In this document: piece after piece, positions 48,257 to 56,963 of the stretch
How positions within the stretch are numbered: position 1 is the stretch's first letter
Layout of the letters: the number at the start of each line of letters is the position of its first letter
Origin: Gemmatimonadota bacterium
GTDB lineage: Bacteria > Gemmatimonadota > Gemmatimonadetes > Longimicrobiales > RSA9
Direction: 5' to 3'
Assembly: GCA_039715185.1 (NCBI GenBank)
Contig: JBDLIA010000005.1
Span: 6,587 to 70,586 of the forward strand
Length of the DNA: 64,000 nucleotides
Notes under the pieces: model-generated
The model's input: only the letters and a program-made list of their open reading frames with translations
Told to the model about the DNA's origin: nothing
Databases searched by the model: none
Made by a program: the position numbers and the translations under genes

Positions 48257-50104
48257 TCAAGAAGCGACGCCGTCCAGCACGCTCAACGCCACCTCGACGC
48301 GCCCGAACGGCGCGCTCACCTGCACGCCCTGGATCACGCCGCGGACCGCCGCCAGGCATTCGCGGGCGATCGCGAGGCCCTCCTCCAGCGCGTCCTCTTT
48401 GCCGCGCGCGCTGGCCGCGCGCATGCGCTCGATGACCGGGTCCGGCACGCTGATCCCCGGCACCTCGTTGGCCAGGAACTCGGCGTTGCGTGCCGACACC
48501 AGCGGCCATATGCCGGCCACAACCGGAATGCTCATGTCCCGCTCCTGGGCGCTGCGCACGAAGTCCAGCAGTTGGGCGGGGTCGAAGACCGGCTGCGTGA
48601 CGCAGAACTCGGCACCCGCGTCGACCTTCCAGTGGAAGCGCTCGAGCTCGTGTTCGGCGTCCACTGCGCTGGGATTGGCGGCCACCCCGATCGCGAACTC
48701 CGTCGGCTCGCCGATGGCGTTGTTCCCGGGGTCCAGCCCGTGGTTGAGCCGCGACACCAGGTTGGTGAGGCCGATGGAGTCGATATCGAAGACCGCGGTG
48801 GCGTCCGGGTACGGGCCCATCTTGGGCGGGTCCCCCGTGACGATCAGCAGGTTGCGAACCCCCAGCGCGTGCGCGCCCAGCAGGTCCGACAGCATGCCCA
48901 GCAGGTTGCGGTCCCTACAGCTGTAGTGGACGATCGGCTCGATGCCGCCTTCCCGCTGGATCAATGCGGACGTGGCCAGCGCGCTCATGCGCATCTGCGC
49001 GCGAGGGCCGTCCGGTACGTTGACGCCGTCGACGCCGGCTTCGCGCAGGGTCCGCACGCCCCCGAGCATGCGCGCCGGGTCGATCCCCTTGGGGGGAACG
49101 ATCTCCACCGAGGTCACGAATTCACCACGGGCGAGCTTCGCGCCGATGGAGGAGCGGTCTGCCAGCGGTACCGGCTCGCGCGGAGCGGGGCCGCCGACGG
49201 GCATTTCTCCCACGGACACGGTGACGCGGGGGGATCGCATCCGCACCACATCGGCCATGCGCCGCACGTGCTCCGGCGTGGTGCCACAGCAGCCGCCGAC
49301 GAACCGCACGCCCGCGTCGAGCAGTCGCCGCGTGTACTTGGCGAAATACTCCGGCGAAGCCATGTACATCTGGCGGCCGTGCACCTCGCGCGGCAGTCCC
49401 GCGTTGGGCTGCGCGGACAGCGGCACGCCAACCACGGGGGCCATCCGATCAACGGCCTGGAGCACTCCGTGGGGACCGACCGAGCAGTTCAGCCCGACCA
49501 CGTCGGCGCCCCACTCCGACAACCTCGCCCCGCACACCTCCGGGGCGGTGCCGTACGCGGTACTCCCGTCCTCGCCGATGGCCATCTGCGCGAACACCGG
49601 CAGGTCGGTCAACTCGCGAACCGCCTCCAGCGCCTGCCTGATCTCCTCCAGGAACGAGAAGGTCTCGAGCACGAAGCCGTCGACCCCTCCCTCCAGCAGT
49701 CCTTCCACCTGTTCCCGGAAGAACGTCCGTGCCTCGTCGACGGAGGTGGGACCGTAGGGTTCGATCCGTATCCCCAGCGGACCTATGGAGCCGCCGACGG
49801 CCACGTCCTCGGCGACGGCCCGACGCGCGATCTCCGCGGCGCGCGCGTTGATCTCGCGCACCCTGTCTCCGAGGCCGTGCTGGGTCAGCTTGACGCGATT
49901 GGCTCCGAAGGTATTGGTCTCGACGATCTCCGCGCCCGCGCGCGCATAGGCCTTGTGAATGTCGCCCACGATCGCCGGCTCGGTGACGTTGAGCTCGTCG
50001 TAGCAGCGATTGATGAACACGCCGCCCGAGTACAACATCGTGCCCATTCCGCCATCGAATAGGTGCGGGCGGCCGTCTTCGATGAGCGCGCGGATGTCGC
50101 TCAC
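48257..50104 (-). CDS. bifunctional homocysteine S-methyltransferase / 5,10-methylenetetrahydrofolate reductase-like fusion
   Basis: N-terminal Hcy-binding domain (FDGGMGTML...GGCCGTTPEHV). C-terminal MTHFR/MetF-like domain (SVEIVPPKG...IVHYSCRDRN...LLIVTGDPP). GTGA overlap with the upstream permease stop. Confidence 0.88.
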   Translation of the reverse strand: MSDIRALIEDGRPHLFDGGMGTMLYSGGVFINRCYDELNVTEPAIVGDIHKAYARAGAEIVETNTFGANRVKLTQHGLGDRVREINARAAEIARRAVAEDVAVGGSIGPLGIRIEPYGPTSVDEARTFFREQVEGLLEGGVDGFVLETFSFLEEIRQALEAVRELTDLPVFAQMAIGEDGSTAYGTAPEVCGARLSEWGADVVGLNCSVGPHGVLQAVDRMAPVVGVPLSAQPNAGLPREVHGRQMYMASPEYFAKYTRRLLDAGVRFVGGCCGTTPEHVRRMADVVRMRSPRVTVSVGEMPVGGPAPREPVPLADRSSIGAKLARGEFVTSVEIVPPKGIDPARMLGGVRTLREAGVDGVNVPDGPRAQMRMSALATSALIQREGGIEPIVHYSCRDRNLLGMLSDLLGAHALGVRNLLIVTGDPPKMGPYPDATAVFDIDSIGLTNLVSRLNHGLDPGNNAIGEPTEFAIGVAANPSAVDAEHELERFHWKVDAGAEFCVTQPVFDPAQLLDFVRSAQERDMSIPVVAGIWPLVSARNAEFLANEVPGISVPDPVIERMRAASARGKEDALEEGLAIARECLAAVRGVIQGVQVSAPFGRVEVALSVLDGVAS

Positions 50105-51978
50105 GCGTCGCGCCGCGCCAGCGCCAGCCCCGGGTCCGACCGGCTCACGCGCCGGGCCGGGCCGATCGAGGCGCCTACGCTGATCACCATCACCGCCAGC
50201 GCGAGCGACCCCATGAGCCCCGCTCCCACGCCGCCTAGCGCGGGCAGCCGGTCGGCCAGGGTCTGGTTCACGGCCATCAACATCAGCAGACCCGCGACCA
50301 GGCCGCGAGCGCCGACCCCGGCGCCGCGCAGGACGATAGATCGGGCGAGCGAGCGCGGGCTCGCGCCCAGCGCCGCGCGGATGCCGAATTCCCAGGAGCG
50401 CGCACGCACGTCCTCGCGCATGGTGGTTACCATGCCGATGAGGGACAGGATCAGCGCCGGCAAGGCGGCAGCCGCAAGCAGCAGCGCGAGCCAGCGCGGC
50501 GCCGCCGCGGTCTCGGCCAGGAGAGCTACCAAGGGCCGCGCTTCAGATACCCGGACGCGCGCGCTCGCTGGCAACCCGGCCGCGAGCGCCTCCGCCAGGA
50601 CGGCATCAACCTCGGCCGGCTCCTCGACGCCCTGAAGCGCGACGTCGAACCGAGACGGCAGCGCCTGGGCCGCGGGCAGGTAAATCGAGGGCACCGGATC
50701 GCCGGCGGCGGCGAAGCCCCCTTCCGGCAGATCCGGCACGACCCCCACGATGGTGGACCAGGCCGGCTCCCGGGCGCTCGCCATGACGCGCTTGCCGATC
50801 GCGACGCCGTCGACGAATCGGCGCGCGTATGACTCGCTGACGAGCACCACGCCCGGAGCGTCCGGAGCGTCCTCCGTACCGAAGGAACGCCCCTCCAGCG
50901 CGGCCTGGCCGTGCGCCTCGAAGAACCCCGCGCTCACCGCGGCCCTGCGGGCGTCGACGCTGATGATGTCGACCACCATCCCTCCGGCCGGGCACGCCCC
51001 GCAGTACGTCGTCACGTAGTCGCGTGCGCCTTGTCCCGTCAGCGTTCCAGGGCTGGAGATGGACACCGCGCTCGCTCCCGTGGCCGTCGACAGCGACTCG
51101 CGGATTCCAACGTGCAGCAGCGCGAGAGCCTCCTCGCCCACGCCCCCAAGCTCCACACGCGCCACAGCCGTGTCACCGACCTCGAACCCCGTCCAAGCGT
51201 CCCGCTGAGGGGATAGGACCGCCCAGCCCAGGACGAACACGGTGCCGACGACAGTCACCAAAGCGGCGATCTGGACGCTCGCCATGGAGCGCCGGAAGAA
51301 CCCCACCGCCGGATCCTCGGTGACGCGAGCGCCAATACTCAGCAAGGCCGGCAGGCGCCGGCGGCCCAAACTCGTGGACAGCAGGCCCAGCAGCGCCGCG
51401 CCCAGCGCGAGCAGGGCGCCGGTGAGCGCCGCGGCGGGCGCCGACGGGGTCGCGCCGACGCGCGCGAGCGATTCCGGAAGCGTGGCCAGCAGCCCCACCG
51501 ATACGGCCCAGCCCGGTCCGCCGCCCAGAAGCGCGCCCGTGCCGGTAATCAACACTAGCGGGCCGACGGATCGGCGCAGGCGCACCCACCGGGGTTCTCC
51601 CAGAGACCGGCGGGTCGCGCTGGCGCTCCGCCGGGCGAGACCGTGCTGCGCCCAGCCGGCGAGTGCGTTGGTGCAGGTGGCCAGGACGGCCGCGCAGAAC
51701 ACCCCCGCGAAGAGCGTTAGGAGAGCCTCGAGCCCCTCGGCCTGAAGGGAGTCCACGGAGCGGGCGAAGGCCGTCCGACCGAACACACCGCCGTCGGCGG
51801 GCACGGACTCGGGCCGCAAGCCCCAACCCAGCCCCGCGCTCGAGCCGGCGCCGCCGGCGAGCACCGTCCGCCCGAGCTCGAACAGGGCCACCGCGGCCGC
51901 CGCGCTGACGAGCAAGCTCGCGGTTCTCAGAGGGGAGGCCAAGAACGGACGCAGCGCGGCCGGCGTGCGGGACTTCAT
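50101..51978 (-). CDS. duplicated FtsX-domain (MacB/ADOP-like) ABC-type permease without adjacent ATPase
   Basis: ATG 51978 overlaps the metH stop (ATGA). The C-terminal FtsX domain is clear (REDVRARSWEFGIRAALGASPRSLARSIVLRGAGVG...). There is a degenerate N-terminal copy (RRSLGEPRWVRLRRSVGPLVLITG) and a MacB_PCD-like periplasmic middle part. Confidence 0.75.
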   Translation of the reverse strand: MKSRTPAALRPFLASPLRTASLLVSAAAAVALFELGRTVLAGGAGSSAGLGWGLRPESVPADGGVFGRTAFARSVDSLQAEGLEALLTLFAGVFCAAVLATCTNALAGWAQHGLARRSASATRRSLGEPRWVRLRRSVGPLVLITGTGALLGGGPGWAVSVGLLATLPESLARVGATPSAPAAALTGALLALGAALLGLLSTSLGRRRLPALLSIGARVTEDPAVGFFRRSMASVQIAALVTVVGTVFVLGWAVLSPQRDAWTGFEVGDTAVARVELGGVGEEALALLHVGIRESLSTATGASAVSISSPGTLTGQGARDYVTTYCGACPAGGMVVDIISVDARRAAVSAGFFEAHGQAALEGRSFGTEDAPDAPGVVLVSESYARRFVDGVAIGKRVMASAREPAWSTIVGVVPDLPEGGFAAAGDPVPSIYLPAAQALPSRFDVALQGVEEPAEVDAVLAEALAAGLPASARVRVSEARPLVALLAETAAAPRWLALLLAAAALPALILSLIGMVTTMREDVRARSWEFGIRAALGASPRSLARSIVLRGAGVGARGLVAGLLMLMAVNQTLADRLPALGGVGAGLMGSLALAVMVISVGASIGPARRVSRSDPGLALARRDA

Positions 51979-54900
51979 CGATCGTCCTCCGCGCTGAAAT
52001 ATTTCGCGTCGGGGTGGTGCACGACCAGGGCGGCGGTGGACAGCTCCGGCACCAACGCCCCGGCTTCGGTCAGGTCGAGCCCCAGCCGCTCGCGCGCCGG
52101 CAGCAAGTCGAACAATCGGAAGTGCTGTTTGTGGTCGGGGCACGCCGGGTACCCCCACGAGTAACGCAACCCGCGTTCGGGCGCGATGCCCAACTCCCGA
52201 CGCATGCGCCGGTGTACCCACTCGGCGGCGGCCTCGGCCAGGCGCACGCCGAAACCGTGCAGGAAGAACCCCTCGGAGTATTCGCCCCCCTTCATCAGCG
52301 CTTCGGAGCGCTCGAGCAGGGCGTCGCCCACGGTCACGACCTGGAAGCCGACCACGTCCGTCGGGGCGCCATCCCGGGGGCGGAAATAGTCCGCCAGACA
52401 CAGCCGCTCACGGCCCGGCTGGCGTGGAAACTCGAAGCGCGTCGACTCCGCGAGCGGGTCTTGCGGGTCGAACACCACGAGCGCGTCACTCTCGGACGCC
52501 GCCGGGAAGAACCCGTACGCGGCGCGCGTGCGCAGCCACCCGCCGGAGATCGCGTCCTGCTCGTAGCGCCGCAGCCGAGGCTCGTACTCCTCGCCCACGA
52601 GTTGCTCCCACTCCTCGCCCTTGGCGTTCTTGGCGCCCCAGTGCAGCCGGTAGAGCGTGTTCAGGTCGATCAGTTCGAACAGCTCGGAGGGCGGGATGCG
52701 GTCGATGACCTTCACGCCGGCAAACGCGGGCGTGGGAACCTCGATGTCAGCCGCGGGCCGTGCGTCGACAACGGCGGGCGCCAACTCCGCCGCCCGCGCC
52801 TTGAGCTCCTCCCGGCGCGCGGCACCTTCGCGGATGTCGCGCAGACGCTCCGTGCGGAAAGCGTCGCGGCGCGTCGGATCGACCAGCGCGTCCACCGCCT
52901 CCAGGCCCGCAAACGCGTCCTTGCAGTACCAGATGCCCGCCTCGTACACAGCCGCAGTCCCGGGCTCCACCGCCCCGGTCTCGGGGTCCAGGAACGCCGC
53001 CCGACGCACGAACGACGGGTTGATCGCGGCGCCTCCGCAGAGCAGCGGATAGCCTAGCCCGCGCGCGGACAGCTCCTGCACGCACGCCGGCATCTGGCGC
53101 GAAGTGGATACCAGCAGAGCGGACAGTCCGATGGCGTCCGCGCCCACCTCCTCGGCCTTGGCGATGATGTCGTTCACGGGCACCTGCTTGCCCAGGTCGT
53201 GCACGGCGTAGCCGTTGTTGGCCAGGATGGTGTGGACCAGGTTCTTGCCGATGTCGTGGACGTCGCCGAAAACGGTCGCCAACACCACGATCCCTTTGGC
53301 CTGCCCGTCCAGCCGCTCCAGATAAGTCTCCAGCCTTGCCACGGCGCGCTTCATCACCTCGGCGGACTGCAGCACGAAGGGCAGGATCAGCTCGCCCGAG
53401 CCGAACTTGTCGCCCACTTCCTTCATGGCGGGCAGCAGCACGTCGTTCAGCGTGGCGACCGCGGCCGCGTCTTCCTTGGTACCCGACAAGTCCTCCGGCG
53501 AAACCCCCGCGCGACCCGCGATGGCGGCGTCCACCAGCTGCTCGATCCCGTCCTTCTTGCGGTGCAGGATCTTCCAGTGAATGGCCTCGTCGGGGGCCAT
53601 CTGGACGGTGGGGTCGGCGGCCTCTTCGGCGGTAGCCTCGACGCCCTCGAAGTGCGCGATGAAGCGCGCCAGCGCGTCCGGACGGCGGTCGAGGATCAGG
53701 TCGTCGGCGAGCTCCCGCTCCTCGTCGTCGACCTCGGCGTAGGGGGTGACGTGCGCGGGGTTCACGATCGCCATGTCCAGCCCCGCCTCCACGCAGTGGT
53801 GCAGGAAGGCGGAGTTGAGCGCGCCGCGCGCATGCGGCTGGAGGCCGAACGACACGTTGGAGACGCCCAGGCTCGTGAAAACGCCGGGAAGCTCGGCCTT
53901 GATGGCGCGGATGCCCTCGATGGTCTCGACGGCCGAGCGGCGGAATTCTTCCTCTCCGGTCGCCAGGGTAAACGTGAGCGCGTCGAAGATCAGGTCCTCG
54001 GCCGCGAGGCCGTGCTCGTCCACGGCGATTCCCGCGATCCGGCGCGCGACCTCCAGCTTGCGCTCGGCGGTCTTGGCCATGCCGACCTCGTCGATGGTCA
54101 GCGCCACCACCGCCGCGCCGTGCTCGCGCGCAACGGGCAGCACCGCGTCCGCCTTGGCGCGCCCCGCCTCCAGGTTGATCGAGTTGACGGTAGCGCGGCC
54201 GGGATACTGCTCGAGCGCCGCCCCCATCACGTCGACCTCGGTGGTGTCGACGACGAGCGGCGTTTCCACCGCCTGTGCGAGCCGCTTGACCAGCTCGCGC
54301 ATCTGGTCCGCCTCGTCGGCGCGCTCGGTGAGCGCCACGCACACGTCCAGCAGGTGGGCGCCGCCCTCCACCTGCCCGCGCGCGATCTCCAGCACGCCGT
54401 CCAGATCGTCGGCCAGCAGCAACCGCTTGACCGCCCGCGATCCCTGCGTATTCACCCGCTCCCCGATCAACGTGGGCGCCGGGATCTGCTTCATGTCGAA
54501 CGCTGTCATCGCGCTGGCCAGGCGCGGCGGCGGCGCGGGCGAGCGGGGCGCGGGCTTCGCGCCGCCCACGCGCTCCACGACCTGGCGGATGTGCTCTGGC
54601 GTGGTGCCGCAGCAGCCGCCGACTACGTTGACGCCGAACTTCACGACGAACTCCTCGTGCGCGTCGGCCAGCGCTTCCGCGGTGAGCGGATAGACCGCCT
54701 CCCCGGCCTCGTTGTGCGGGATGCCGGCGTTGGGGATGACGCTGATAGGCAGCGGCGCGTTCTCGCACAGCCAACGCACCGCCTGCCGCATGTGCTCCGG
54801 CCCGGTGGAGCAGTTCAGGCCGATCGCGTCCACGCGCAGCGCGCGGAGCACGGTGGCGGCGGCGGCGATGTCGGTCCCCAGCAGCATGCGGCCCGAGGTG

Positions 54901-55502
54901 TCCAGCGTGACCTGCGCCTGGATCGGCACCGTGCGGCCCGACTCCGCGAAGTAGCGGCGGATCCCCGCGACCTGCGCCTTGACCTCGAGCATGTCCTGGC
55001 TGGTCTCGATGAGCAGGACGTCCGCGCCGCTCTCGACCAGCCCGCGCGCTTGCTCGGCGAAGACCTCGGCGAGCTCGGCGTAGGTCACGTCGCCCAGGCC
55101 GGGCTCCGACGTGCTGGGCAGGAAGCCGCTCGGGCCGATGCTGCCGGCGACGAAGCGCGGTCGGTCCGGCGTGGAGAACCGATCCGCGACGCTGCGGGCG
55201 AGCGCAGCGGCCGCGGCGTTGATCTCCACGATCCGGTCCTCGAGCCCGTACTCCTTCATGGTCAGCCGGTTGGAGCGGAACGTGTCGGTCTCGATCACGT
55301 CGCAGCCCACCTCCAGAAAGGAGGCGTGGACCCGCTCGATGGCATCCGGGCGCGAGATCACCAGGTAGTCGTTGCAGCCGACGAGCGCGTCGCCTCCGAA
55401 GTCGGCCGCGCCGAGCCCGAGCGTCTGGATGCTCGTGCCCATCGCCCCGTCGTAGACCAGGACGCGATCGGCCAGGCTCGTGATGTAGCGCGACTCGCTC
55501 AT
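51975..55502 (-). CDS. metH: cobalamin-dependent methionine synthase
   Basis: Hcy domain (YDGAMGTSIQ...GGCCGTTPEHI), pterin-binding domain, B12-binding DxHxxG (GDVHDIGKN) and an AdoMet reactivation domain. Start set at ATG 55502 (GGGGAG upstream). The ORF-track GTG 55532 lies inside the leader hairpin. Confidence 0.96.
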   Translation of the reverse strand: MSESRYITSLADRVLVYDGAMGTSIQTLGLGAADFGGDALVGCNDYLVISRPDAIERVHASFLEVGCDVIETDTFRSNRLTMKEYGLEDRIVEINAAAAALARSVADRFSTPDRPRFVAGSIGPSGFLPSTSEPGLGDVTYAELAEVFAEQARGLVESGADVLLIETSQDMLEVKAQVAGIRRYFAESGRTVPIQAQVTLDTSGRMLLGTDIAAAATVLRALRVDAIGLNCSTGPEHMRQAVRWLCENAPLPISVIPNAGIPHNEAGEAVYPLTAEALADAHEEFVVKFGVNVVGGCCGTTPEHIRQVVERVGGAKPAPRSPAPPPRLASAMTAFDMKQIPAPTLIGERVNTQGSRAVKRLLLADDLDGVLEIARGQVEGGAHLLDVCVALTERADEADQMRELVKRLAQAVETPLVVDTTEVDVMGAALEQYPGRATVNSINLEAGRAKADAVLPVAREHGAAVVALTIDEVGMAKTAERKLEVARRIAGIAVDEHGLAAEDLIFDALTFTLATGEEEFRRSAVETIEGIRAIKAELPGVFTSLGVSNVSFGLQPHARGALNSAFLHHCVEAGLDMAIVNPAHVTPYAEVDDEERELADDLILDRRPDALARFIAHFEGVEATAEEAADPTVQMAPDEAIHWKILHRKKDGIEQLVDAAIAGRAGVSPEDLSGTKEDAAAVATLNDVLLPAMKEVGDKFGSGELILPFVLQSAEVMKRAVARLETYLERLDGQAKGIVVLATVFGDVHDIGKNLVHTILANNGYAVHDLGKQVPVNDIIAKAEEVGADAIGLSALLVSTSRQMPACVQELSARGLGYPLLCGGAAINPSFVRRAAFLDPETGAVEPGTAAVYEAGIWYCKDAFAGLEAVDALVDPTRRDAFRTERLRDIREGAARREELKARAAELAPAVVDARPAADIEVPTPAFAGVKVIDRIPPSELFELIDLNTLYRLHWGAKNAKGEEWEQLVGEEYEPRLRRYEQDAISGGWLRTRAAYGFFPAASESDALVVFDPQDPLAESTRFEFPRQPGRERLCLADYFRPRDGAPTDVVGFQVVTVGDALLERSEALMKGGEYSEGFFLHGFGVRLAEAAAEWVHRRMRRELGIAPERGLRYSWGYPACPDHKQHFRLFDLLPARERLGLDLTEAGALVPELSTAALVVHHPDAKYFSAEDDR

Positions 55503-55513
55503 CGACTCCCCAT

Positions 55514-55547
55514 AGAAAACCCCCGCGACCACTCCTGTGGTGCGGGG
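55514..55547 (-). terminator. intrinsic-terminator-like hairpin + U-tract in the metH leader (candidate attenuator / riboswitch expression platform)
   Basis: The - strand reads CCCCGCACCAC-AGGA-GTGGTCGCGGGG-G-TTTTCT (11 bp with one bulge). It ends 8 nt upstream of the GGGGAG SD-like sequence, about 11 nt before the metH ATG. There is no upstream - strand gene for it to terminate. Confidence 0.55.
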
Positions 55548-55868
55548 ATCGGTACGGGTCCTCGTCCGCTCTGTCCCGGCACTTTAGGCGTTTGGTTCGG
55601 GCGGGCAAACCGCCCCGGGGGTCTCAAGCGGCCGCAAATGTCTCCCCCGGCCCAGCGAGGCGCGGCGTCGCTGACCTGCCCGACGACGCACCGACTGTGG
55701 TTCAAAGCTAGGCAAGGGGGATCGCCGGTCAAGGGAATCCTGGGAGAACGTGGCGAGGTGGCGGCGATGGAAAACTCCGCGGGCGAGCGATGCGTTACTA
55801 TGTAGACCTGGATTGATCCTGCAGACACAGCCCGCACCGGCGCCGCCCTTCAGACCAAACGGCTCTCG

Positions 55869-56963
55869 ATGAATCGCTCCTCCGCCGCGCGCGGGCCCCG
55901 AAACCGAACCAGACGCCGTCCGGGCGGGACGATCCTGCTCCCGCTGCTCGCGGCGTCGCTCATCGGCAGCGCGTGCGGGGACGGCGGCGGCGACCCCCTG
56001 GAGCCGAAACCGCCCCCTGGGCCCGTGATCGGATTCTTCGGGGGGGATACCACGCTCGCGCTCTCGAAGGCGGCCGGTGCGGCCATCGCGCTCGCCGCGG
56101 CGTCGCGCGGCTTCGCCTTCTTCGACAACTTTCTCCCCTGCCCCCCACGTGGCCTCATCGACTACGCGGATCGGGGCAGCACGACTATCGCGGCAGCGCA
56201 TTCCTGCAACCTGGGGGACGGAGTCGTGCTCGACGGAGAGCTGGAAGTCGTGTCCGCCACCGACTCCCTTGGCGTGATCGTGGGCGTGGAAGTGACCGGC
56301 AGCGCGACGCTCAGGACCGCGGAGGGACTGATCGCGCTACCCGACATGAGGGTTGACGGCATCGATGTCGCGGCGGGCGCTGGGCGCGCCGCCGCGATCG
56401 AGCCCGACTCCGCGACGATCGACGCGCTGGGCAAGACCGTGGCCTATGACGCGCGCGGTGCGCCTGTCGCTGTCTTCAGCGCCTCGCCCTCCATCGACAT
56501 CCCGAACCCCGGTAACGAGCTCGCCGCGCTCTCCGATGACGACGTACGCCGCGTGGTGTTCGACCCGCTCCTGGCGCTGTCGGGGATCCTCTTTGGCGAG
56601 CAGCTGGAGTTCGGCCGCGGGCCGCACGAGCACACCTTCGATTGCGGTTCGTTCGCTGTTCTGCCCGACACGCTGTCGGGGCTGACGGGGATCACGGCCT
56701 CGTTCACGGACTGCCCGCTCACCTCGGGCACGCGCTTGAGCGGGGACTTCTCGGTGCGCTGGACCGCGTTCGCCGAGCCGCTCCTGACGATGGCGATGGA
56801 GGGCGCCCTGACCATCACCGGCGGCTTGCCGAGCATCCGGCTCAACGCATTCGAATGGAACGTCGAGGATGCCGGTCAGTTCGACACCGCGTCGTTCCGT
56901 GGACGCCTGGTGGTCGATACGGTCGGTCGCGATTACGCCTTCCAGGTGCCCATCAGCGATTGA
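55869..56963 (+). CDS. hypothetical lipoprotein
   Basis: ATG start and a signal peptide with lipobox (ILLPLLAASLIGSAC). No recognised domains. Confidence 0.65.
   Translation: MNRSSAARGPRNRTRRRPGGTILLPLLAASLIGSACGDGGGDPLEPKPPPGPVIGFFGGDTTLALSKAAGAAIALAAASRGFAFFDNFLPCPPRGLIDYADRGSTTIAAAHSCNLGDGVVLDGELEVVSATDSLGVIVGVEVTGSATLRTAEGLIALPDMRVDGIDVAAGAGRAAAIEPDSATIDALGKTVAYDARGAPVAVFSASPSIDIPNPGNELAALSDDDVRRVVFDPLLALSGILFGEQLEFGRGPHEHTFDCGSFAVLPDTLSGLTGITASFTDCPLTSGTRLSGDFSVRWTAFAEPLLTMAMEGALTITGGLPSIRLNAFEWNVEDAGQFDTASFRGRLVVDTVGRDYAFQVPISD

Follow-up and report, generated by a model that had tools for sequence, protein, structure and literature searches.

The S-adenosylmethionine (SAM) riboswitches SAM-II, whose structure was reportedly described by Gilbert et al. 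in 2008, and SAM-V, which is said to go back to Poiata et al. in 2009, are the described systems closest to the element reported here. Riboswitches for S-adenosylhomocysteine (SAH), for which metH is a classic target in Proteobacteria, switch ON. For SAM-II, discrimination of at least 100-fold in favour of SAM over SAH is reported. Terminators occur in many SAM-II representatives, which function as OFF switches (Corbino et al. 2005, PMC1273637), and the "SAM-II long loop" form (RF01726) was reported from Bacteroidetes and marine samples (Weinberg et al. 2010, PMC2864571). The SAM-V structure is an H-type pseudoknot in which a P3 stem-loop immediately succeeds the P1 3' strand; next come conserved adenines, docked in the P1 minor groove, and then the P2 3' strand. 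The U of a UAAA motif is bulged and reads the SAM adenine, and the two A after it pair with the UU of the loop, which a U-rich third strand triplexes (Huang & Lilley 2018, PMC6061858). Here we report that the leader of metH, encoding cobalamin-dependent methionine synthase, in a 64,000-nucleotide (nt) stretch of DNA from a Gemmatimonadota bacterium (contig JBDLIA010000005.1, positions 6,587 to 70,586; hereafter the window) is very probably a SAM-sensing OFF riboswitch of the SAM-II/SAM-V family, exerting control by transcription termination. A literature search returned no paper naming both SAM-II and a term beginning with Gemmatimonad.

An earlier note on this DNA, made from the letters alone, had proposed that a long GC-rich leader upstream of metH was a cis-regulatory RNA of unclassified type. 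The terminator-like hairpin, the GUUUUCU, the GGGGAG, the metH AUG and the two upstream stems listed there are all present on the minus strand. The two stems, which had been described as further local structures, turn out to be P1 and an inserted P3 of one pseudoknot (Table 1), and the spacer between metH and the divergent gene is 366 nt (55503-55868) instead of about 330 nt; only about 195 nt of it is likely to be leader, the remainder being promoter region.

An alignment of metH leaders from relatives, which the earlier note had called for, revealed a conserved aptamer: the leader element is common to 45 distinct relatives, nearly all of them with it upstream of metH, and the MetH proteins of these relatives are 55-89% identical. 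Comparing the leader by blastn with MetH loci and reading their upstream regions identified the shared element in L001, L003, L004, L079 and L007, in which a stem is followed by GAUUUG and CGCUUGC, next by the strand that closes this stem, and then by a hairpin that varies, a stretch rich in A, CUAAAGUGCCGGGA and a terminator. A gene-blind metagenome scan with the pattern CGCTTG-N18-48-CTAAAGTGYCGGGA gave 67 loci, of which about 45 were real; about 20 were chance matches lacking AUUUG or P1, which were removed by eye and with covariance model R1, and L087 (24.5 bits) was a false positive.

The family consensus reads GGCGG-AnG-GAUUUG...CGCUUGCnA-CCGCC. In the window, which holds one copy of the aptamer, the P1 strands enclose GCGGCCGC and the corresponding segment is CCGGGGG-AGAC-AUUUG...CGCUUGAGA-CCCCCGG, followed in order by P3, GAACCAAA and CGCCUAAAG; G55615 is able to pair in either P1 or P3. 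Among the relatives the P1 5' strand varies (CGGCGG, CCGCGG, CGGUGG, UUGGCGG, CGCGCGC). GAUUUG, CGCUUG and CUAAAG are invariant in the 45-sequence P3-bearing set, and AUUU, CUUG and CUAAAG are invariant in an alignment of 61 sequences that comprises P3-bearing and canonical forms, including Rfam-validated SAM-II sites.

Pair counts were made on a MAFFT alignment of the 45 sequences that had not been fitted to any structure. P1 is paired in 98.9% of cells with compensatory changes in four of six pairs, and P3 in 82% with compensatory changes in all six outer pairs. For the pseudoknot 98% of cells are paired and one of six pairs shows compensation, or two of six once canonical sites are added. 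Taken over all helices 93% of cells are paired vs 36-47% when the partners are slid, 42-47% being the range for a slide of one column, and the observed values were reached by none of 500 shuffles. With the canonical sites added, P2a pair 30-97 is GC in 53 sequences and AU in six, and pair 31-96 is GC, AU or GU. The P3 inserts all differ in sequence (43/43), and each forms one single hairpin of 5-10 base pairs (bp; median z -2.7).

In the lower P2b helix UU-G-C-N pairs with N'-G-(x)-C-[U]-AA, and its third pair (N) covaries, being G:C, U:A (18 sequences), C:G (18 sequences) or A:U. An initial pseudoknot register, CUU:AAG, was dropped for that of the SAM-V structure (U bulged; UU with the first two A of UAAA; then G:C, C:G and N:N'), because no other explains the P2b covariation; P2a is the same in both registers. 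By homology to U47 of SAM-V, U55586 would be the unpaired U that reads the SAM adenine, with A55585 and A55584 paired with the loop UU. Likewise, AUUUG appears homologous to the U-rich strand that makes the U:A.U triples around SAM in SAM-II and SAM-V, and the A-rich L3 presumably makes A-minor contacts in the P1 minor groove, both roles being assigned from the SAM-V structure (PMC6061858). The 61-sequence alignment shows no variation at any of the residues homologous to SAM-V SAM/sulfonium contacts, namely the unpaired U, AAA, UU in the loop and UUU in the third strand.

The element was also detected independently. Covariance model R2, whose training set excluded the window and its three closest relatives, recovered 55573-55655 on the minus strand at 72.9 bits (E 5.5e-17) as the only match with E < 1 in the 64 kilobases, and L010, also outside the training set, reached 72.6 bits. 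Model R1 finds the canonical SAM-II sites as well, weakly but specifically. The fold of the whole 336-nt leader compared with shuffled sequence gives z = -0.61; folding stability alone is therefore no evidence, and the case is comparative. This value, together with the abundance of stems in high-GC genomes and the lack of an Rfam match in the window, is what might be expected had the leader held no riboswitch, just chance hairpins and an ordinary terminator or attenuator controlled, for example, by a protein or a leader peptide. We consider that extremely improbable, and in effect already refuted by the comparative data: three helices show compensatory changes among 45 relatives that share no more than 55-89% identity in MetH, the independent model match is highly significant, intermediate sequences score above the thresholds of Rfam SAM-II-family models, no conserved small open reading frame (ORF) was apparent on reading the relatives' leaders, and the single upstream AUG of the window starts an out-of-frame ORF of just a few codons. 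Conservation, covariation and the covariance-model match thus bear out the proposal of a cis-regulatory RNA with an intrinsic-terminator platform upstream of metH.

Which family it belongs to was approached through Rfam, as the earlier note had advised. At the gathering threshold no model matched anywhere in the window, and on 55400-55950 no riboswitch model did so even at E ≤ 10. At that level there was no match to RF01057 (SAH) or RF01727 (SAM/SAH), and RF01826 (SAM-V) matched neither the window nor any of 16 related loci. Two microRNA-model matches on 55400-55950 at E ≤ 10 lie on GC hairpins and were rejected as chance. Orthologous leaders, in contrast to that of the window, are recognised. 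The Gemmatimonadaceae metH leaders L008, L011 and L013 match RF00521 at 42.5-48.9 bits (gathering score 36), and many leaders of metH in this family are a shorter version without the P3 hairpin. L136, which has the L1, loop and tail of the window family and no P3, scores 45.8 bits with RF01726 (gathering score 44) and 31.3 bits with RF00521. Below threshold and at the same site, L104 scores 31.1 bits with RF01726 and 22.2 bits with RF00521, and L119, which has a short P3, 22.1 bits with RF01726.

The window element is thus the SAM-II "long loop" architecture with a hairpin inserted directly after P1, and the Rfam models miss it because of the inserted P3 and the different P1 sequence. As there is no direct score with SAM-II models or profile, the SAM-II link runs through intermediate sequences and shared architecture. 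The label "unclassified" has accordingly to be given up, orthologous leaders lying above the RF00521 and RF01726 gathering thresholds: the element is not a new riboswitch class, it is a divergent P3-bearing SAM-II/SAM-V variant missed by current models. That a SAM-II core could not be fitted by eye, as had been stated, agrees with the missing Rfam matches at E ≤ 10, yet the core AUUU, CUUG and CUAAAG does fit.

Turning to the expression platform, a terminator hairpin of sequence CCCCGCACCAC-AGGA-GUGGUCGCGGGG ends, with its U-tract, 11 nt before the metH start, and an equivalent terminator is present in 43 of the 45 relatives, about 20-25 nt past the tail; of the other two, L076 lacks one and L122 is a truncated sequence. 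The tail GUGCCGGGA is complementary to UCCCCGCAC at eight of nine positions with one C.C mismatch, and this antiterminator helix appears in the minimum free energy (MFE) fold when the transcript is cut off ahead of the terminator 3' arm. The terminator 5' strand is CCCCGCAC in 33/45 relatives, and its column entropy is 0-0.9 bit vs 1.25-1.66 bits at the inner P3 stem columns of the same sequences (the two P3 5'-strand columns nearest P1 have 0.7-0.9 bit). Its "AC" is retained also where the terminator leaves these bases unpaired.

On the mechanism that we propose, RNA polymerase would start near 55698 from a TTGACC-N16-TAGCTT promoter, and the aptamer (55650-55574) would fold such that CGCC-U-AAA-GU-GCCG pairs back into the P1 loop as P2b and P2a. 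SAM bound in the P2b triplex would hold the tail GUGCCGGGA in the pseudoknot, leaving the hairpin at 55547-55521 and the U-tract to form and to terminate transcription 11 nt before the metH start. At low SAM the tail would instead pair with UCCCCGCAC, i.e. with the terminator 5' strand, and this antiterminator would let RNA polymerase read into metH.

Several observations weigh against a SAM-sensing terminator switch. None of the Rfam riboswitch models RF00521, RF01726 and RF01826 matches the window, even at E ≤ 10 on 55400-55950, and nhmmer, with a profile made from 16 canonical SAM-II sites of Gemmatimonadaceae, gave the window leader 2.5 bits in its native form and 5.8 bits with P3 deleted, neither value being significant; so narrow a profile speaks neither for nor against homology. 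The window and its three closest relatives carry an A.G mismatch at the middle pair of the lower P2b (loop GAGA vs ACGCC). Among the loci of the metagenome scan, the invariance of the tail comes partly from how they were found, the search pattern having set the tail. The U-tract has just four consecutive U, and the antiterminator helix, of 8 bp plus one C.C mismatch, is weak, at about -13 kcal/mol vs -24 for the terminator. Moreover, the truncated-transcript MFE fold has the antiterminator in 42/45 sequences, and the terminator 5' strand when reversed still pairs with the tail in 31/45; the support from folding is therefore modest, and the switch model rests on conservation and on the SAM-II terminator precedent.

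The weak antiterminator and the only modestly worse reversed-strand control would suit a SAM-II-family aptamer in which tail and terminator do not compete, the leader being instead a constitutive attenuator or pause site, under translational or Rho-dependent control, or the source of a terminated small RNA as main product. There is precedent in Sinorhizobium, where SAM-II termination yields a small RNA with regulation possible at a distance (PMC9373788), and L076, from Gaiellales, lacks a terminator and has a tail overlapping the ribosome-binding site. Such an arrangement is improbable here, given that the terminator is kept in 43/45 relatives at a near-constant distance, that the Shine-Dalgarno sequence and AUG lie outside all conserved helices, and that conservation of the terminator 5' strand, including bases unpaired in the terminator, would be difficult to account for if there were no alternative pairing.

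The ligand might also differ, the same SAM-II-like pseudoknot sensing SAH, SAM together with SAH, or another methionine-cycle metabolite. SAH riboswitches classically target metH in Proteobacteria, the aptamer is unmatched by all Rfam SAM-II/SAM-V models and its subgroup has the A.G in P2b; H-type pseudoknot aptamers of relaxed specificity, such as SAM/SAH (PMC7367207), do exist. We regard this as quite improbable: the residues homologous to the SAM-V contacts with SAM and its sulfonium do not vary, no SAH or SAM/SAH model of Rfam matches at E ≤ 10, and the predicted wiring is OFF, which suits feedback by SAM, whereas one would expect an ON switch where metH is controlled by sensing SAH. A SAM-sensing OFF riboswitch acting through the terminator is therefore the reading that we retain.

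Table 1 Features of the metH leader and its surroundings in the window, with the basis of each assignment
Feature	Coordinates	Strand	Basis or remark
Predicted -35 box, TTGACC	55727..55732	-	Invariant in window, L096, L130 and L133
Predicted -10 box, TAGCTT	55705..55710	-	Invariant in window, L096, L130 and L133
GC-rich 5' hairpin (GGUGCGUCGUCG...CGACGCCGCGCC), between predicted start and aptamer	55659..55692	-	MFE fold
Aptamer, H-type pseudoknot of SAM-II/SAM-V family with P3 hairpin	55574..55650	-	Leave-out covariance model R2, alignments, pair counts
P1 5' strand, CCGGGGG	55644..55650	-	Pairs with 55615-55621
L1 third strand, AUUUG	55635..55639	-	AUUU invariant in 61 sequences, AUUUG in the 45-sequence set
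P2 5' strand within P1 loop (CGGCCGCUUGAG): CGGC (P2a), CG, C, UU, GAG (P2b)	55623..55634	-	Conservation and covariation
P1 3' strand, CCCCCGG	55615..55621	-	Pairs with 55644-55650
P3 hairpin, GGGCGG-UUUGC-CCGCCC, 6 bp, directly after P1	55599..55615	-	Folding, compensatory changes
A-rich L3, GAACCAAA	55591..55598	-	Family consensus GAAaCAAA
P2 3' strand, CGCC-U-AAA-GU-GCCG	55577..55590	-	CUAAAG invariant in 61 sequences; covariation
Switching sequence (tail), GUGCCGGGA; part of P2a or 5' arm of putative antiterminator	55574..55582	-	Complementarity to 55540-55548
3' arm of putative antiterminator = terminator 5' strand, UCCCCGCAC	55540..55548	-	Conservation and complementarity
Intrinsic terminator, 11-bp stem with one bulge (55547-55537 with 55532-55521), loop AGGA, then GUUUUCU (55520-55514)	55514..55547	-	-24 kcal/mol
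Shine-Dalgarno-like GGGGAG (55511-55506) and metH AUG (55502-55500)	55500..55511	-	Sequence reading
metH, cobalamin-dependent methionine synthase, regulated gene	51975..55502	-	Pfam domains

The two promoter boxes are separated by 16 nt, and the spacer and flanks vary among the window, L096, L130 and L133 while the boxes stay invariant; 5' of the -35 box there is no conservation in the window and its three closest relatives. Judged from the position of these boxes, the probable transcription start is near 55698, some 48 nt before P1. A promoter/terminator consensus scan called no promoter in the leader, because the -10 box matches just three of six positions, and did not report the terminator at 55547-55514, because its stem contains a bulge. 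The only call that it made was disregarded as it falls within the 5' end of the divergent gene. The leader is thus conserved in relatives and a conserved predicted promoter lies upstream of the aptamer, and so neither of the two findings that the earlier note had named as speaking against it, a leader without conservation or a transcription start downstream of the hairpin, is what we see. The 5' hairpin between the predicted start and the aptamer is weakly conserved in the closest relatives only, with a comparable stem seemingly possible in L130; it is absent from more distant relatives and lies outside the conserved family core.

MetH is complete, with its five Pfam domains (S-methyl_trans, Pterin_bind, B12-binding_2, B12-binding and Met_synt_B12) each above cut-off, and the best identities to it in a MetH scan of GTDB genomes, found in Gemmatimonadota, were 67-70%. 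The window leader has a single upstream AUG (55511-55513, minus strand), out of frame with metH and situated in the U-tract/Shine-Dalgarno region; it opens a 4-codon ORF (AUG GGG AGU CGA UGA), the stop of which overlaps the metH start codon. The second gene after metH, encoded on the same strand, is a 615-amino-acid YitJ-like fusion of homocysteine S-methyltransferase (PF02574) and MTHFR (PF02219) at 48260-50104. Between the two lies an ORF with MacB_PCD and FtsX permease domains (50104 to about 52000, minus strand), whose stop overlaps the start of the fusion gene. metH and the fusion gene may form an operon, which would place the supply of methyl-tetrahydrofolate under riboswitch control as well. 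The divergent ORF on the plus strand has a lipoprotein-like signal at its N-terminal end and no Pfam match.

Every true match of the gene-blind scan with enough downstream sequence precedes metH, with the exception of L095/L129, where a metY-like gene follows. In L010 (99-229), a locus that the genome scan with the MetH protein had supplied, the element precedes metK, followed directly by metH, and an insert of about 70 nt takes the place of P3, the score of 72.6 bits notwithstanding. P3 ranges from 5 bp to a roughly 70-nt insert. The P3-bearing form is present in several Gemmatimonadota metagenome-assembled genomes (MAGs) and in one Gaiellales MAG (L076). The latter, which lacks a terminator, has the P3-bearing aptamer at 1389-1475; the tail of this aptamer, ...CUAAAGAGCUCCGGGAGG, overlaps the GGGAGG ribosome-binding site that immediately precedes the start of metH, which suggests translational control with the same type of aptamer.

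Other features were seen around these leaders. In L129 (4053-5582; L095 is the same sequence) the same riboswitch with its terminator is separated from the metY-like O-acetylhomoserine sulfhydrylase gene by about 430 nt, which hold a Met/Ala/His-rich small ORF and a second terminator-like hairpin. Short G-rich repeats of the GGGGATGG / GCGATGG type fill the spacer between terminator and metH in L083, L093 and L128. Upstream of the SAM-II site in L011 there is a long near-perfect palindromic hairpin (1154-1258), which gives a chance microRNA-model match on both strands.

Whether the P3-bearing, terminator-coupled form constitutes a distinct, uncatalogued SAM-II subclass, in which a P3 as in SAM-V joins the long P2a and the terminator known from SAM-II, is in our view evenly balanced. 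Such a subclass would be what usually regulates metH in those Gemmatimonadota MAGs that carry no Gemmatimonadaceae label, would also occur in Gaiellales, and would be systematically missed by Rfam models. If so, P3 would be a modular insertion gained and lost within one phylum, with canonical, P3-less and P3-bearing forms at orthologous metH leaders, and it could tune folding or ligand response. Pipelines based on Rfam leave the window riboswitch and at least 45 relatives unannotated, such that methionine/SAM regulation in Gemmatimonadota wrongly looks riboswitch-free; the relatives are sequences able to widen the family models. Our data leave the understanding of SAM riboswitch function unchanged. 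They do provide a link between SAM-II, "SAM-II long loop" and SAM-V: at the orthologous gene of a single phylum P3 may be absent, short or replaced by a very long insert, supporting one structural family with an optional peripheral helix.

Compared with other riboswitches of methionine and SAM genes, the SAH riboswitch (RF01057) is also a common controller of metH, in Proteobacteria; it differs in core sequence and switches ON, as opposed to the OFF response predicted here. The SAM/SAH riboswitch (RF01727) is likewise an H-type pseudoknot with a different core sequence. With SAM-V (RF01826) the element shares the pseudoknot core and the order of P3 directly 3' of P1, then conserved adenines, then the P2 3' strand. 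SAM-V, however, has a P2a of 2 bp and a P3 of 3 bp, compared with about four GC pairs and 5-10 bp here. It is also translational, P2a covering the Shine-Dalgarno sequence, whereas here the terminator lies between and the Shine-Dalgarno (55511-55506) is about 65 nt downstream of P2a. Finally, it occurs in marine alpha-proteobacteria and Bacteroidetes and not, as here, in Gemmatimonadota.

The "SAM-II long loop" (RF01726) has the same spacing of P1, 3-4 nt and GAUUUG, a P1 closed by GNUUGCAACC (the GNUUGCNACC closure feature is seen in the window), and the A-rich L3 and GCUAAAG; its model lacks P3 and has an AU-rich consensus from other phyla, and the window goes undetected by it. From canonical SAM-II (RF00521; "SAM_alpha") the window differs by three more nucleotides between P1 and AUUUG, and by a P3 between P1 and the A-rich L3, where canonical SAM-II has none and L3 is single-stranded (PMC6061858). 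In common with SAM-II it has an H-type pseudoknot of P1 and P2a/P2b with a GC-rich P2a of several bp, the GAUUUG third strand, the GCUUG loop and the CUAAAG 3' strand, as well as a location upstream of methionine/SAM genes where a terminator OFF platform is usual. SAM-II is, moreover, the form present at the orthologous metH leader in Gemmatimonadaceae.

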